A stretch of 30,642 bases of DNA from Candidatus Cloacimonadota bacterium (GTDB lineage: Bacteria; Cloacimonadota; Cloacimonadia; Cloacimonadales; TCS61). The position numbers and the translations under genes were made by a program. This document shows, piece after piece, positions 10,730-18,155 of this stretch (position 1 is the stretch's first letter; each line of letters starts with the position of its first letter). The stretch is from positions 1-30,642 of the forward strand of contig DAOUUD010000001.1 in NCBI GenBank assembly GCA_030668345.1, read 5' to 3'. Under the pieces are notes generated by a model that searched no databases, was not told the DNA's origin, and worked only from the letters and a program-made list of their open reading frames with translations.

Positions 10730-12298
10730 TTACCACCAGCGTTGTTTATTATTATCATAGATAAAGATACGTTCTTCCTCTTTGGAACCTTCTTTTACCA
10801 GCCAGAGCAAGTGTTTTTTGGGAACATTTTTATAGATAAATGGTTCTGATGTAGCGGTTTGTTTTCCCAGAGATTTCCATTCGTCATCCCAATAGAATAA
10901 CTCATAAACTTCACCTTCATCCAGGAAAACTACTTTCTTAAATTCTGTTGCCTTATCAAAGATCTTTTTAGTTACCGAGACCAGTTCTGTTTCTTCATAA
11001 TTTCCATCACCTTCCAGGAAACGGAGATCACCATTTTTCATAAGAATAAAAGGCTTGCCGGCAGGTTCTAATTCTTTGTGTACATAGAACATGGGAAGGT
11101 AAACGATGTTTACTCCCATATCTGTAAAAGTGACTTTCCCATTTTGGATCTCAGACCAGTGGATCGCTTTCCATTTTCCTGAATTAAATACACAGAGATA
11201 GGCAAAATTTGTACTGTCGGGGATTTCATAATCCAGCGTAAAAGTAACATCGTGGACATTTGTGTAGTCAGGAGTTACATCCATATAGCTTTTTCCAGCT
11301 AACCAGGCAGGAGCCTTTTCACCTTCCTGTAGTTTGAAAACCAGGTTATTTTTTTGTTCAGAGAACATTTTTCGATATGCTTTAGCAAGGCGATGACCCA
11401 ACGAATAATCACCAGGATTAGCTTCACTGCCCATGAATGGAATGATCTTCCCATCCGGCAGAACAATAGAGTTCCAGGCGTGATTGTTACCGGTATCTGC
11501 CCAGTGAGGAGTATAGTCGCTGGTTACAGGAATTCCGTTAGCACGCATGGCATAGATAGTGATATTCGTCATATCTTCACAGCGACCGATCTTGTTCTTC
11601 AGCATTTCAAAAAGCCCCTGATCTGTTGGATTCAGATAAAATAGCGGATCGAATTTAAACCAATCTTTCAGATTTGTATTAATAAGCCGGGCTGCTTCGA
11701 TGGGATCATCCGGGTTTTCCATCTGTTTTTCTATGTCTTTGAAATCTTCCAGGAAATAACCCCGCCAGGACCGCCAGGATTCAATAGGTTCATTGCTCCC
11801 GCGATAGGGAAGAATATATTCTTTAAAAACATCATAAGAATAATTTTGTGCCCAGGGTTTTTCACGCCAGGCTTCAAATGCCAATTCAATATTATCGATA
11901 AGGAAATCGGCTGAGATGGTGTTGATATCCTTCTTTCTTTCTTTAACAGCCCAATTCAGTTCACCATGTTCAACTTCAAGCTCGTTCATGGCAGATTCTG
12001 CTTCGTCATAGTTTTTATGATCGAGAACATTCCAGGGAATTTCAACTTTGTTTGAATCGTAAAGTGCCATTTCAACGAAAGAGTGATCGCTCATATTATT
12101 TAAAAGATAATACAGGGCATCAAGTTGCAGAGAATCACCTTTTGAATGAAAATATCTGATTGCAATTTTGAGTTGTTTTTTATTTTTTCTGGCCTCTTTC
12201 AGATTACTTTTTATCTCATCAGGATATTTGATAGCAGAACAGGAAGCCAGCATAATAACAGTTATAATCAGAAGCAGATATTTTTTAATTCTTCTCAT
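10730..12298 (-). CDS. Transglutaminase-like superfamily lipoprotein
   Basis: Lipobox MLASC after a K/R-rich, hydrophobic signal; GRCEDM (Cys) and GNNHAWN (His) motifs; start overlaps the aroDE stop (ATGA). Confidence 0.8.
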   Translation of the reverse strand: MRRIKKYLLLIITVIMLASCSAIKYPDEIKSNLKEARKNKKQLKIAIRYFHSKGDSLQLDALYYLLNNMSDHSFVEMALYDSNKVEIPWNVLDHKNYDEAESAMNELEVEHGELNWAVKERKKDINTISADFLIDNIELAFEAWREKPWAQNYSYDVFKEYILPYRGSNEPIESWRSWRGYFLEDFKDIEKQMENPDDPIEAARLINTNLKDWFKFDPLFYLNPTDQGLFEMLKNKIGRCEDMTNITIYAMRANGIPVTSDYTPHWADTGNNHAWNSIVLPDGKIIPFMGSEANPGDYSLGHRLAKAYRKMFSEQKNNLVFKLQEGEKAPAWLAGKSYMDVTPDYTNVHDVTFTLDYEIPDSTNFAYLCVFNSGKWKAIHWSEIQNGKVTFTDMGVNIVYLPMFYVHKELEPAGKPFILMKNGDLRFLEGDGNYEETELVSVTKKIFDKATEFKKVVFLDEGEVYELFYWDDEWKSLGKQTATSEPFIYKNVPKKHLLWLVKEGSKEEERIFIYDNNKQRWW

Positions 12299-13683
12299 TT
12301 TTTACCTCCCAGATAATTCAATTCGTTCAGGAACTTTTTCAGTTGTGAATCAGCCTGCCATTTCCAGAACGTTTTACCATCCACAAAATCAATTTCATTT
12401 TCAATACACTGTTTTATTAGTATAGTATTTTTTTCTTTATAGGGCAAATCAATTATTTTCTCCGGTAATTTAATTCTCAATTTAACCAGAACATCTTCAT
12501 TATTCGTTCCTAAAGGTGTACAATTAATTAAAACCACAAATTCAAGATTATCAATTTCACTTATTGAAATAAATTCTCTGGAATATTTTACGGCCAATTC
12601 CATGCCTTTGTGTTCATTCCTGGAAGTAATGAAAATATTGTAACCGGATAAAGCAATTAAAGCGCTTTCGGTAGTAGCTCCGGCTCCAAAAATCAGGATC
12701 TTGTTTTCAGGTTTTATGTTTAAATAGTGCATACATTTCAAAAATGCTTCGATGTCTGAATTAAATATTTTCTTACTTCTTGGCAGGAATAGATTTATTG
12801 GGTGATTAATTAAATCTTGTGGATCGAACAATTTTGTTATTTCTTTTTTAAAAGGCATTGTTACTGAAAAGCCAAAAAACCTGTTTTTGAAATCCGTGCT
12901 ATTGAACCAATTCATAAAATCGGAAAGATCATCAGTAAAAAATGGCAGGTAAATAGCATTAAGTTTTCTTTTTTTGAATGTAGTATTATAAAATTCCAAT
13001 CCAAGCGATTGCCATACCTGTTCGCCACCAACGATCCCTCCTAAAGCAGTTTTGTCACTGATGTCTTTCAGTTTCAGGATGGCAGCTTCTTCTTCAGTTA
13101 ATTGACCATCGGCTGTGGTGTATTGTGTCAATCCTATAAATGTGCTGTCTGCTCCTAAATGTTTGTGTAAGATTCTCCCGATTTTTCCCAACTTTCCCAG
13201 GGCAGCAAAAATAACCGGTTTATTTGATTTCCTGATTATTTTTTCTATGAAGTTAAGGTCGATGTAATTGGAAATATTAACAACAATTTTTAAATATTTT
13301 GCAGCTTTTGAATTTGAAATTTCAACTACTTTTTCTAACTTCTGAATGTCTGGTATTTCCGAAAAATCATGATATGAGAGTATCAGGTTTTGGGCGGGAA
13401 TATCCACATTGTGATATTGTGAAAGTTCATAATCGACCAGGCAATCGAATTTATTTATCACTTTCCTGTAGAATTCAGTTTTCTCTTTGCGGGGTATTTG
13501 TTTTACTCCACCTTCCGAAACATCCCGGACAGTAATTATAGTTTTTGAATTGATATATTTTTCCGGTAATTTTTTATATTCGGAATTATAATCGAGCCGG
13601 TATTCGATCCATTCCAGTCCGGTTCTTTTTACATGATCTTCCAGGAAAGCATTATTTAAGTAGGGAATAGATAATATCAGCAT
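12295..13683 (-). CDS. aroDE: Bifunctional type I 3-dehydroquinate dehydratase / shikimate dehydrogenase
   Basis: N-half: IEYRLD, TVRDVSEGG, SYHDF (His), LKIV (Schiff-base Lys), GQL. C-half: VTMPFKK, FNSD, GAGA, INCTPLG, DLPY, DG...QA. Confidence 0.88.
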   Translation of the reverse strand: MLILSIPYLNNAFLEDHVKRTGLEWIEYRLDYNSEYKKLPEKYINSKTIITVRDVSEGGVKQIPRKEKTEFYRKVINKFDCLVDYELSQYHNVDIPAQNLILSYHDFSEIPDIQKLEKVVEISNSKAAKYLKIVVNISNYIDLNFIEKIIRKSNKPVIFAALGKLGKIGRILHKHLGADSTFIGLTQYTTADGQLTEEEAAILKLKDISDKTALGGIVGGEQVWQSLGLEFYNTTFKKRKLNAIYLPFFTDDLSDFMNWFNSTDFKNRFFGFSVTMPFKKEITKLFDPQDLINHPINLFLPRSKKIFNSDIEAFLKCMHYLNIKPENKILIFGAGATTESALIALSGYNIFITSRNEHKGMELAVKYSREFISISEIDNLEFVVLINCTPLGTNNEDVLVKLRIKLPEKIIDLPYKEKNTILIKQCIENEIDFVDGKTFWKWQADSQLKKFLNELNYLGGKK

Positions 13684-14981
13684 TGAACTTTTTTGCTATT
13701 TTCAAGGATGATTTTCCATAGAGTTGAGACCTGTTTTTCACTAAAACCCCAGGTTCTTGCTTTTAGTTTTAGTTTTTCAAGTAATTCTTTTTCTCTGTTT
13801 TTATCTTCGATCTTCAGGTTGTTTATTTTCTTATATTCACCTATCAGTTTGGAAATTTCCTGTCTTCTAAATAGTCCAATTAAAATATCTTCATCGATCT
13901 TATCTATCGCTTCGCGGAAGTCTTTAATTTCTAAAGACGTGTTATCGATAAGTTTCTGATAGCTGATTGCATCGGCTAGAATCAGTTTGATCATTGCCTC
14001 AGCTACCGGAATAATTCTGGGAATTATGCATGTATCGTGTCTTCCTCCTGATTTGAAGATAATCTCTTTTCCTGTATGGGAAATGGTTTTTTGTTCTATA
14101 TTAATGGAAGAGGTCGGTTTAACTACAAACCTGAAAATAATATTTTGTCCCGTGCTTATCCCGCCAAGAATACCACCACTATGATTTGATATAAATCCTT
14201 CTTTTTCCATCTGGTCGTTAGCTTTGCTTCCCTGCAGGTCTGCCAGAGCAAAACCATCCCCGAATTCTATCCCTTTTACAGCTCCAATAGATAAAATGGC
14301 TTTAGCAAGATTGGCATCGAGTTTTTCAAATACAGGATCGCCCAAACCAGCTGAGATATTCTCTATTTTCACCTCTACAATTCCACCGATTGAATCCCCG
14401 GAATTTTCAATTTTTTTGAGGTATTTTACAAGTTCGTTGTAATTATTCCGGTCGGACCAGTTGAGTTCATTTTGGAATGATGTATCAATATTTGAACTTT
14501 TAAACTCACCAATTTTAACCGGATAGATTTTTATGGTTATATCTTGCAGAAGATGATCAATCATTCCGGAAGCTGCAACCCGGGCTATCGTTTCCCGCCC
14601 GGAAGCTCTTCCACCTCCCCGATAATCGTATATCTTGAATTTTTGAAATAAAGAGAAATCAGCATGTCCGGGGCGAAAGATGTTCTTTAAATTCTCATAA
14701 TCTTCAGGTTTTGCATCTTTATTGTAAACCACCATGCAGATAGGCATGCCTGTAGTCTTTCCTTCCAATACACCGGATAGAATTTGAATGCGATCTTCTT
14801 CTTTCCTGCCGGATGCAAACCTTTTATTTCCGGGTTTTCTGGCGTTCAGGGCCTTCTGGATCTTTACTAATGGAAATTTTATACCTGGCTTGATATCTTG
14901 TATAACAACACCGATAGCAATGCCATGGCTTTCCCCGAAAGTTGTAATTCCCAAATAATTATTCCAGGAATTTGATCTCAT
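13677..14981 (-). CDS. aroC: Chorismate synthase fused to a C-terminal AroQ-type chorismate mutase
   Basis: TFGESHG, RPGHAD, GGRASGRET, GGILGGIS, GRHD in residues 1-345. The last 85 aa (13934-13680) read FREAIDKIDEDIL...RRQ...IGEYKK...DKNRE...NSKKVQ. Confidence 0.93.
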   Translation of the reverse strand: MRSNSWNNYLGITTFGESHGIAIGVVIQDIKPGIKFPLVKIQKALNARKPGNKRFASGRKEEDRIQILSGVLEGKTTGMPICMVVYNKDAKPEDYENLKNIFRPGHADFSLFQKFKIYDYRGGGRASGRETIARVAASGMIDHLLQDITIKIYPVKIGEFKSSNIDTSFQNELNWSDRNNYNELVKYLKKIENSGDSIGGIVEVKIENISAGLGDPVFEKLDANLAKAILSIGAVKGIEFGDGFALADLQGSKANDQMEKEGFISNHSGGILGGISTGQNIIFRFVVKPTSSINIEQKTISHTGKEIIFKSGGRHDTCIIPRIIPVAEAMIKLILADAISYQKLIDNTSLEIKDFREAIDKIDEDILIGLFRRQEISKLIGEYKKINNLKIEDKNREKELLEKLKLKARTWGFSEKQVSTLWKIILENSKKVQC

Positions 14982-15035
14982 AATACAATTCCTTATAATA
15001 AATTTCTCAGTTGAGGTTCAATTTATTATCTCTCG

Positions 15036-15074
15036 TGTCAATCATTTTCGACTTACTTAAAAGATAAATTGACA
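15036..15074. promoter_or_regulatory. Divergent promoter region with back-to-back TTGACA hexamers
   Basis: TTGACA on the minus strand at 15041-15036 (towards aroC) and on the plus strand at 15069-15074 (towards exbB). The -10 elements are not convincing. Confidence 0.45.
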
Positions 15075-15125
15075 ACTTAAAGCAATTTATTTCTCATCGC
15101 ATCACAAGTAGGTGAAGGAGGAGTA

Positions 15126-16952: not shown

Positions 16953-18155
16953 ATGAATAGAGTTTTGTTAATTAACGATCTGGAAGAAGCAAAAAAAGAA
17001 CTTACAAAAATAAAAGTATCTTCGCAGGGTATAGAGGTGATGGCTCCCAAAGCTTTAGGATTATTCATCAAACTTACACAAGTTCATGTGGGGGCCGCCA
17101 ATATACTTAAACAGGAAATGTTATCCATCGGGGGAGATGCCGCTGTTGCCCGTGGTGTGGTAAATGGTGTGGAAAAAACAAGTGATATGATCCTGTTGGG
17201 GAATGCAAATAAGATAAAGAAATTAATAAATAAATTAAACCATCAGACAATATTTGGTCTTCCGGAAATCAGAACAGATCTGGAATCGATGCTGAAAAAT
17301 GTATTGGAAAAACAAATATCTATCCTGAATTGCAATGGTAAAAAATTGAAACTAGATTCTATGAAAATAATGGGAGTTTTAAATGTAACTCCAGATAGTT
17401 TCTCTGATGGTAACAAGTTCATCCGGGTTGATAAAGCGGTGGATCATGCAACCCGAATGAACGAAGAAGGAGCCGATATTATAGATATCGGCGGAGAATC
17501 TACCCGACCAGGAGCGGAAAAAGTAGACATTCCCACTGAATTGGAAAGAGTAATTCCGGTTATTGAAGAACTCAGAAAACGAATCGACATTCCGATCTCG
17601 ATCGATACAAATAAAGCTGAAGTTGCAGATAAAGCTATTCAGGCAGGGGCTTCCATTATAAATGATATAAGCGCTTTGAGGTTTGATGCCGGAATGATTG
17701 GAGTTCTTCAAGAAAATCCGGATATTCCCATTATTCTGATGCACATGCTGGGAACTCCACAAACCATGCAGAAAGAACCGTTTTATGAAGACACAATCGA
17801 AGAAATTATGGATTTTTTTCAGGAACGAATCGATCATTGTGTTTCAAATGGAATTAATAGAAGCAGAATCGTTCTGGACCCGGGAATTGGCTTTGGGAAA
17901 AGACAGAGAGATAATCTCATAATATTAAAGAAACTATACGAGTTTAAAACTTTCGGTTTGCCAGTTCAGTTGGGCGCTTCCCGTAAAAGTTTTATTGGAA
18001 AGGTCTACGATTCCAAACCGGAAGACAGGCTGGAAGGAAGCCTTGCTGCAACTGCTCTTGCTTTCCAGAATGGAATTGATATCGTACGGGTTCATGATGT
18101 TAAACAACATAAACTTTTTATGCAGACATTGCAAAGTATAAAGGATGTTAAATGA
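16953..18155 (+). CDS. folP: Dihydropteroate synthase with an N-terminal extension of about 115 aa
   Basis: MGVLNVTPDSFSDG, DIGGESTRPG, SIDT, IINDIS, DPGIGFGK, GASRKSFI, VRVHDV. Confidence 0.96.
   Translation: MNRVLLINDLEEAKKELTKIKVSSQGIEVMAPKALGLFIKLTQVHVGAANILKQEMLSIGGDAAVARGVVNGVEKTSDMILLGNANKIKKLINKLNHQTIFGLPEIRTDLESMLKNVLEKQISILNCNGKKLKLDSMKIMGVLNVTPDSFSDGNKFIRVDKAVDHATRMNEEGADIIDIGGESTRPGAEKVDIPTELERVIPVIEELRKRIDIPISIDTNKAEVADKAIQAGASIINDISALRFDAGMIGVLQENPDIPIILMHMLGTPQTMQKEPFYEDTIEEIMDFFQERIDHCVSNGINRSRIVLDPGIGFGKRQRDNLIILKKLYEFKTFGLPVQLGASRKSFIGKVYDSKPEDRLEGSLAATALAFQNGIDIVRVHDVKQHKLFMQTLQSIKDVK

Follow-up and report, generated by a model that had tools for sequence, protein, structure and literature searches.

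Chorismate mutases (CMs) of the AroQ class are known as parts of several bifunctional proteins. In Escherichia coli, an AroQ domain forms the N-terminal part of both the P-protein (PheA: AroQ CM, prephenate dehydratase and ACT domains) and the T-protein (TyrA: AroQ CM and prephenate dehydrogenase domains), each of which joins consecutive steps by linking the mutase to an enzyme that consumes its product (PMC10520331). In the 3-deoxy-D-arabinoheptulosonate-7-phosphate (DAHP) synthase-CM proteins of FCB-group and Gram-positive bacteria (the Bacillus subtilis AroA type, model NF009239, and Porphyromonas gingivalis DAH7PS-CM, PMC12202928), the AroQ domain is carried by the first enzyme of the shikimate pathway, where feedback control is at least part of its role. 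CM is also naturally, though rarely, fused with an adjacent step in exported CM-cyclohexadienyl dehydratase (CDT) proteins, which are of the AroQ-gamma type, periplasmic and monomeric, and in which the tethering produced neither channelling nor kinetic gain (PMC10520331). Here we describe a different arrangement, in which an AroQ-type domain follows chorismate synthase (AroC) in a single protein, P0001, encoded by an aroC-aroQ fusion gene of a Candidatus Cloacimonadota bacterium (assembly GCA_030668345.1). The gene lies in a stretch of 30,642 nucleotides (contig DAOUUD010000001.1, positions 1 to 30,642, forward strand), which was analyzed as a whole and is referred to below as the window. The initial annotation of this DNA knew of no characterised fusion of CM to AroC, and our own literature search, which covered both AroC-CM fusions and the aromatic metabolism of Cloacimonadota, likewise returned nothing relevant, the “bifunctional chorismate synthase” of published papers referring to a flavin reductase activity and not to a CM fusion.

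The fusion gene (Table 1) is an uninterrupted reading frame of 434 codons in the open reading frame list and translation of the window. The Pfam domain Chorismate_synt (PF01264) was matched at residues 11–339 of P0001 (E-value 7e-118, profile positions 2–326 of 327), and this part also exceeded the equivalog cut-offs of two NCBIfam models for AroC, with 397.2 vs 321 bits for NF003793 and 381.1 vs 212.2 bits for TIGR00033, in agreement with the earlier reading of a complete AroC ahead of the mutase. H19, H106, R48, R129 and D337, along with many glycines, were unchanged across 47 fused sequences; H19 and H106 may correspond to the catalytic histidine pair of the solved AroC. In an AlphaFold2 (AF2) model of P0001 built from 47 homologues, with a mean predicted local distance difference test (pLDDT) score of 83.9, the AroC core was confident, helix 320–346 closed the AroC part and, after a five-residue break, helix 352–386 opened the CM part. 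The junction (residues 340–355) was the least conserved segment of the protein, its top-residue frequency averaging 0.63 vs 0.76 for AroC.

The C-terminal part was matched by CM_2 (PF01817) at residues 356–433 (E-value 1e-17, 64.5 bits vs a gathering score of 27, profile positions 2–79 of 80), and the same match with identical coordinates was recovered at 67.5 bits in the search of the source genome. A phmmer alignment with E. coli CM (EcCM; PDB 1ecm) was free of gaps, with a constant offset of +345, and confirmed that the eight EcCM active-site residues named in the initial annotation are all present at exactly the right spacing: R356 (R11 in EcCM), R373 (R28), K384 (K39), D393 (D48), R396 (R51), E397 (E52), S429 (S84) and Q433 (Q88), the protein ending one residue past the last of these. 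Such agreement at the aligned positions is far beyond what chance would give. Among 121 fused homologues, the equivalents of R11, R28, K39, R51 and E52 were invariant (121/121), those of Q88 and S84 were present in 116 and 115 sequences, respectively, and the D48 position was occupied by D or N. The AF2 model showed helices at residues 352–386, 394–411 and 415–433 with pLDDT values of 91–96, as in an AroQ protomer. Domain score, active-site residues and predicted fold together place the CM domain in the AroQ class. Every NCBIfam CM model matched the tail of P0001, all of them below cut-off (the best, CM_archaeal, at 50.9 vs 66.95 bits), so that the domain falls in no named CM subfamily. Judged by its sequence, P0001 is a genuine AroC-AroQ fusion comprising a full AroC followed by an AroQ-type CM, and the CM domain is very probably catalytically active.

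The initial annotation had also suggested that the CM domains pair, as in AroQ dimers, and modeling supported this. Two copies of residues 345–434 gave a homodimer model with a score of 0.82, against 0.01 for the best of three controls; this mark was reached by 21/30 proteins solved as one-chain pairs and by 0/23 solved as single chains. The model displayed antiparallel contacts between the first helices (H1-H1), with runs sharing at least 96% of contacts and a partner pLDDT of at least 84. Since AroQ dimers have already been solved (1ecm), a passing model shows likeness rather than binding, and it is from this likeness that we infer pairing of the CM domains in the full-length protein, as we do both catalytic activities from the domain matches and conserved residues.

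P0001 is, as far as its sequence tells, outside the described classes of bifunctional CM, its partner being AroC and not prephenate dehydratase (PDT), prephenate dehydrogenase (PDH) or DAHP synthase; the bifunctional models NF007910, NF008400 and NF009239 matched it over the CM part only, far below their cut-offs. With the E. coli P- and T-proteins it shares an AroQ-alpha-type CM, the same eight residues, the three-helix fold and a fusion to the enzyme of a neighboring step. In those proteins, however, an N-terminal CM is joined to a prephenate consumer, whereas the CM of P0001 is at the C-terminus and attached to the chorismate producer, on the upstream side of the mutase and, unlike in PheA, with no ACT domain or other end-product sensor. 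The DAHP synthase-CM proteins resemble P0001 in placing AroQ on a shikimate enzyme, but there it is attached to the first enzyme and here to the seventh, its direct substrate supplier. Compared with the exported CM-CDT fusions, P0001 is cytoplasmic and AroQ-alpha-like, with an upstream in place of a downstream partner.

The fusion proved to be widespread. Both Pfam domains were present in all of the 120 best database matches to P0001 (56–94% identity, 419–478 aa), which originated mostly from metagenome-assembled genomes (MAGs) of Cloacimonadota/Cloacimonetes and which, where a name was given, were called only “chorismate synthase”; homologues of 433–450 aa with this pair of domains were among them. 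The initial annotation had raised the possibility that the architecture is already common and characterised; it is indeed common in databases under this label, while its characterisation was not found. The analysis was extended to 151 Cloacimonadota genomes, complete and draft, 85 of which had an AroC; about 65 of these carried a full-length fusion, across ten families and including closed genomes. Among 50%-identity cluster representatives of 1.8 billion proteins, about 10 of the 150 best matches were fused, some of them only 36–41% identical to P0001 and one labelled Clostridia. A phylogenetic tree was built from AroC-domain columns only, those of the CM being left out. The Cloacimonadota fusions formed a single clade (Shimodaira-Hasegawa-like approximate likelihood ratio test, 99), and a second fused clade was placed elsewhere in the tree, beside the unfused AroC found in genera g32, g37, g34 and g45 of Cloacimonadota. 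About six changes of the fused state were counted on this tree, at least two of which are forced by well-supported branches, so that on the AroC phylogeny the AroC-AroQ fusion arose more than once. One in-frame TGA was seen within the aroC-aroQ match in each of three genomes, two of genus g7 (G055:C42:12912-14207 and G147:C114:3348-4310) and G104 (G104:C47:11064-11291), perhaps through a sequencing error, read-through of a stop lying a little earlier, or another cause.

In some members of the phylum, the two genes are adjacent and separate. Genera g32, g37 and g34 have aroC and aroQ in the same order as in the fusion, within an operon aroDE-aroG-aroB-aroA-aroC-aroQ that contains no PDT or PDH; in g32/g37 the operon is compact, with shikimate kinase encoded outside it, and in genome G051 (operon at 1977-7617 of L033, G051:C2:275000-289000) the last 41 nt of aroC are shared with the 87-aa aroQ. 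AroC from these genera belongs to a distant clade sharing 32–37% identity with the fused AroC, so that the separate genes are not a recent split of the fused one.

The source genome is a fragmented MAG of 1.79 Mb in 252 contigs, 83% complete, in which all seven steps of the shikimate pathway were encoded (DAHP synthase, AroB, AroD-AroE, AroK, AroA and AroC-CM). Its sole DAHP synthase, of type I-beta, consists of the bare core of 271 aa (G000:C28:6771-7475; locus L003:1432-2244), a second DAHP_synth_1 match being KdsA. No ACT, ferredoxin-like or CM regulatory domain was recognized on this enzyme, leaving the entry step with no recognisable feedback module. The fused CM was the single CM_2 match in the source genome, where neither an AroH-type CM nor a second AroQ was found. 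Nearly every CM-positive genome of the sample likewise had exactly one CM, and this was always associated with AroC or PDT: fused to AroC, encoded by a small open reading frame right after an unfused aroC, or fused to PDT in family f12.

Beyond prephenate, no continuation of the pathway was recognized. PDT, PDH and chorismate-binding enzymes were not found in the source genome. Across the sample, PDT was detected only in family f12 and on one short, probably foreign contig of genome G088, and PDH above cut-off only in f12, with 14/14 and 13/14 positive controls, respectively; family f12 belongs to a different order and has an unfused AroC and a CM-PDT P-protein. Both enzymes were absent from about 80 CM-positive genomes, many of which are 98–100% complete and some closed, so the absence is not due to genome incompleteness. 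Chorismate_bind was matched in 17/151 genomes, and both clusters examined were pabA-pabB-pabC, for synthesis of para-aminobenzoate (pABA); the entry enzyme of the tryptophan branch was not found in most of the CM-positive genomes. Prephenate is also known to be used by the carboxy-SAM synthase CmoA. When five genomes were searched, of which three are closed or nearly so, its model TIGR00740 gave only generic methyltransferase matches (20–39 bits vs 193), and MqnA (PF02621), as a sign of chorismate use for menaquinone by the futalosine route, had zero matches in the same five genomes; both uses were rejected on these results. Folate was also considered as a reason for keeping the pathway and was rejected, as folP was present in 147/151 genomes, including all AroC-less genera, and PabB in only 17/151; in family f6, and in a few genera of f1, pABA/folate remains a second use of chorismate. 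Most genomes have folP with no pabB found that would account for their pABA. FolP is itself encoded in the window (16953-18155, + strand), with about 139 extra N-terminal residues ahead of its Pterin_bind domain (140–381). For most of the order, these searches suggest a single recognisable fate for chorismate and none for prephenate.

A candidate use for prephenate is offered by the U32 proteins (PF01136), which carry a CX6CX15CX3/4C motif for a 4Fe-4S cluster (PMC6747719). In E. coli, prephenate is required for the formation of 5-hydroxyuridine-34 in tRNA by TrhP (PMC6599085) and of 5-hydroxycytidine-2501 in 23S rRNA by RlhA (PMC5727448), and in 2024 it was shown in the same species that O2-independent hydroxylation draws its oxygen from this organic donor, which serves the U32 pair UbiU/UbiV under anoxia with phenylpyruvate as the proposed by-product (PMC10990095). 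In the profile over the 151 Cloacimonadota genomes, U32 was present in 85/85 AroC-positive and 86/86 CM-positive genomes, vs 5/66 AroC-negative ones. Both AroC and U32 were missing from genera g18 (0/15), g21 (0/15), g25 (0/7) and g27 (0/5) and almost wholly from family f13, and both were found in all 16 genomes of sister genus g22. Genus g19 comprised one genome with both and one 99%-complete genome (G004) with neither. The folP gene, retained in the AroC-less genera, served as a control indicating that these genomes were neither badly searched nor generally depleted.

Two U32 paralogues were recognized, of about 400 aa and 670 aa. The shorter one combines Peptidase_U32 and Peptidase_U32_C domains, which is the TrhP architecture, and C167-x6-C174-x15-C190-x3-C194 was invariant in 10 U32 sequences, the spacing C-x6-C-x15-C-x3-C occurring in both paralogues. 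The Cloacimonadota proteins are members of the U32 family and, at most, putative orthologues of TrhP or RlhA. The likeness to E. coli thus lies in the presence of a CM and U32 Fe-S proteins in one cell, with shared architecture and motif; in E. coli, however, prephenate for TrhP, RlhA, UbiU and UbiV (PMC6599085, PMC5727448, PMC10990095) is a side-draw of aromatic amino-acid synthesis, whereas no such synthesis is recognisable here and supplying prephenate would be the main purpose of the pathway. The gene order rho, TrhP-like U32, YbgF/TPR-like, mutS was kept across families (L044:2596-8646 in G083, L046 in G019, and G000:C191). A ParD-like/ParE-like toxin-antitoxin pair (L045:3281-3852, G083:C15) was located directly upstream of a 671-aa U32 gene.

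Taken together, P0001 is best explained as a bifunctional enzyme leading from 5-enolpyruvylshikimate 3-phosphate (EPSP) to prephenate at the end of a truncated pathway, with a product most likely destined for U32 proteins, a reading of the sequence data that we hold with slightly more confidence than doubt. The AroC part would convert EPSP to chorismate using reduced FMN, and the AroQ domain, paired with that of a second subunit, would convert chorismate to prephenate, making AroC-CM the sole CM and the final enzyme that can be recognised in a shikimate pathway that is complete yet truncated. Prephenate would then act as co-substrate and oxygen-atom donor for Fe-S U32 hydroxylases, with phenylpyruvate as by-product; the U32 protein of TrhP architecture may be among these, TrhP itself making 5-hydroxyuridine-34 in tRNA. 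That U32 enzymes are the main prephenate consumers is suggested by gene co-occurrence, and we give it a chance hardly short of even. A little more tentative is the wider proposal that most Cloacimonadota kept the shikimate pathway only for prephenate as an oxygen donor in RNA hydroxylation by U32, that lineages losing U32 then lost the pathway, and that AroC-CM is its committed last enzyme.

As to why the two enzymes are fused, the initial annotation had proposed channelling of chorismate at the branch point. No anthranilate/PabB/MenF-type enzyme, MqnA, AroH-type CM or second AroQ was found in this organism, and in the absence of a competing branch channelling has nothing to protect against and is not needed to explain the fusion. 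With no other known chorismate consumer in the lineage, the fusion would cost nothing, and the equal amounts and co-regulation of both activities that it would secure are explanation enough. The lack of any benefit from tethering in the exported CM-CDT proteins (PMC10520331) is a helpful prior here.

Several observations weigh against the assignment of prephenate to U32 proteins. The best NCBIfam match of the 400-aa paralogue was TrhP (NF011996), at 390 bits and so under the cut-off of 534, with 163–199 bits for the 670-aa paralogue, and no DUF3656 domain was found in the latter, whose identity as RlhA is thus not supported. In the source genome, one part of the TrhP-like gene lies at an end of contig C191 and the other at an end of C102. 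A TrmR-like O-methyltransferase (PF01596), which would complete 5-methoxyuridine, was present in 60/151 genomes, with weak matches in family f1 and none in f3, including the AroC-positive genus g22. U32 occurred without AroC in five genomes (G098, G150, G022, G142 and G070); these were mostly MAGs at most 93% complete, the 99%-complete one has its U32 on a 1,064-bp contig, and G070, although AroC-negative, has a free-standing CM. Counted by taxonomic rank, related genomes not being independent, there are only about four separate co-absences of AroC and U32 (genus g38 in family f2, the block of f3 genera, G004 in g19, and f13/f14) to set against one to five discordant genomes, a pattern that is suggestive rather than statistically decisive. 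To maintain seven enzymes for a co-substrate of which little is needed would, moreover, be costly, and searches by family are blind to a non-homologous dehydratase or dehydrogenase.

This last point leads to the chief rival, in which the pathway serves ordinary phenylalanine and tyrosine synthesis and prephenate passes to enzymes non-homologous to known families, either dehydratase plus dehydrogenase or aminotransferase plus arogenate enzymes. Such a role is the canonical one for CM and would suit a costly seven-step pathway, as expected for a bulk product, and a dehydratase family unrelated to PDT does exist in PheC/CDT, which has a periplasmic-binding-protein fold (PMC10520331). It is rendered unlikely by the failure to find PDT or PDH in the CM-positive genomes mentioned above with searches that detected the controls, and both enzymes in f12; by the conservation of aroDE alone beside aroC-CM and the ending of the g32/g37 operon at aroQ; by the rarity of chorismate-binding enzymes, the two clusters examined being devoted to pABA; and by a gene content indicative of peptide and amino-acid fermenters. 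Improbable, in our estimation, is a supply of prephenate or released chorismate to some other product, for example a cofactor, a component of the cell envelope or a secondary metabolite, with the U32 pattern arising as a lineage effect. The small number of co-loss events among non-independent kin and the many genes without assigned function in these genomes would accommodate such a product, but no candidate gene was tied to aroC-CM across genomes, U32 was the only known prephenate-using family found and was present in every CM-positive genome, and the folP control shows that neither a general poverty of genes nor poor searching accounts for the AroC-less genomes.

The two other explanations concern P0001 itself. 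A CM domain acting mainly as a regulatory sensor, binding chorismate or prephenate to tune AroC with little catalysis of its own, had been put forward in the initial annotation, and it would have a precedent in the CM domains that serve type I-beta DAHP synthases as allosteric modules (PMC12202928); with the DAHP synthase reduced to its 271-aa core, feedback control must sit elsewhere. As the main role, this is distinctly improbable, the domain being the only CM in the genome, with strictly conserved catalytic residues, and unfused aroC in the phylum being followed by a free-standing CM of 85–104 aa, an enzyme-like form. The chance that the fusion results from an assembly or frameshift error, or is a decaying pseudogene, is practically negligible in spite of its origin in a MAG as fragmented and incomplete as this one: the same continuous frame, with both domains conserved, is unbroken in more than 120 independent database homologues from many assemblies and in the approximately 65 genomes of the sample, closed ones among them, which excludes such an artefact, including the stop or frameshift near 13940 that the initial annotation had named as a possible refutation. 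The gene is almost certainly real. For the other three alternatives, the balance described above leaves a bifunctional EPSP-to-prephenate enzyme as the reading we prefer.

Table 1. Features of the aroC-aroQ locus, with positions in the window.
Feature	Position	Strand	Size and basis
aroC-aroQ fusion gene, stop included	13677..14981	-	434 aa, P0001; single frame holding both Pfam domains
Chorismate synthase domain, residues 11-339	13965..14951	-	PF01264, NF003793, TIGR00033; AF2 core confident
Junction, residues 340-355	13917..13964	-	AroC C-terminal helix end, break 347-351, CM helix 1 start
AroQ-type CM domain (three helices), residues 356-433	13683..13916	-	PF01817, 1ecm alignment, AF2
aroD-aroE fusion (type I dehydroquinase + shikimate dehydrogenase)	12295..13683	-	462 aa; Pfam + NCBIfam
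Divergent intergenic region aroC-aroQ / exbB, presumed promoter region	14982..15125	.	Position only

In the window, the aroC-aroQ gene is followed by a second fusion gene, aroDE, whose ATG overlaps the aroC-aroQ stop (ATGCTGA) and whose best bifunctional model, NF006802, was matched far under its cut-off. Together the two genes would provide four activities, namely three shikimate steps plus the mutase. Their order was kept in 6/7 complete relatives, among which no conserved neighbor of aroC-CM other than aroDE was found; the neighbors of aroA were unrelated and unconserved, and the DAHP synthase locus gave no clue either. No terminator-like sites were found between 10500 and 15300, and no promoter call in the divergent intergenic region exceeded the shuffled background. 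Downstream, with a 4-nt overlap with aroDE, lies a gene whose 522-aa product is lipoprotein-like and contains a transglutaminase-core domain (10730-12298, - strand), which was not kept beside aroC in other genomes.

The AroC-CM fusion is therefore widespread, of more than one origin and absent from the literature searched, and because its database label is only “chorismate synthase”, genome-scale models will wrongly score the organisms that bear it as lacking CM. It is also a pitfall for the prediction of auxotrophy, as a “complete shikimate pathway” in these bacteria probably does not signify aromatic amino-acid synthesis. The fusion alone is of modest interest; it is the truncated pathway and its co-distribution with U32 that provide a directly testable hypothesis, and what is new here is this context, in which the pathway of an entire order of strict anaerobes appears to go no further than prephenate. 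For the U32 enzymes, to our knowledge, direct in vitro proof of prephenate-donor chemistry is still outstanding. If the proposal is true, AroC-CM and a U32 protein would make a clean system in which to study it, with no PheA, TyrA or CmoA background, and a lineage in which prephenate lacks any other recognisable use, and in which U32 and the pathway are present or absent together, would constitute independent evolutionary evidence for the oxygen-donor chemistry.

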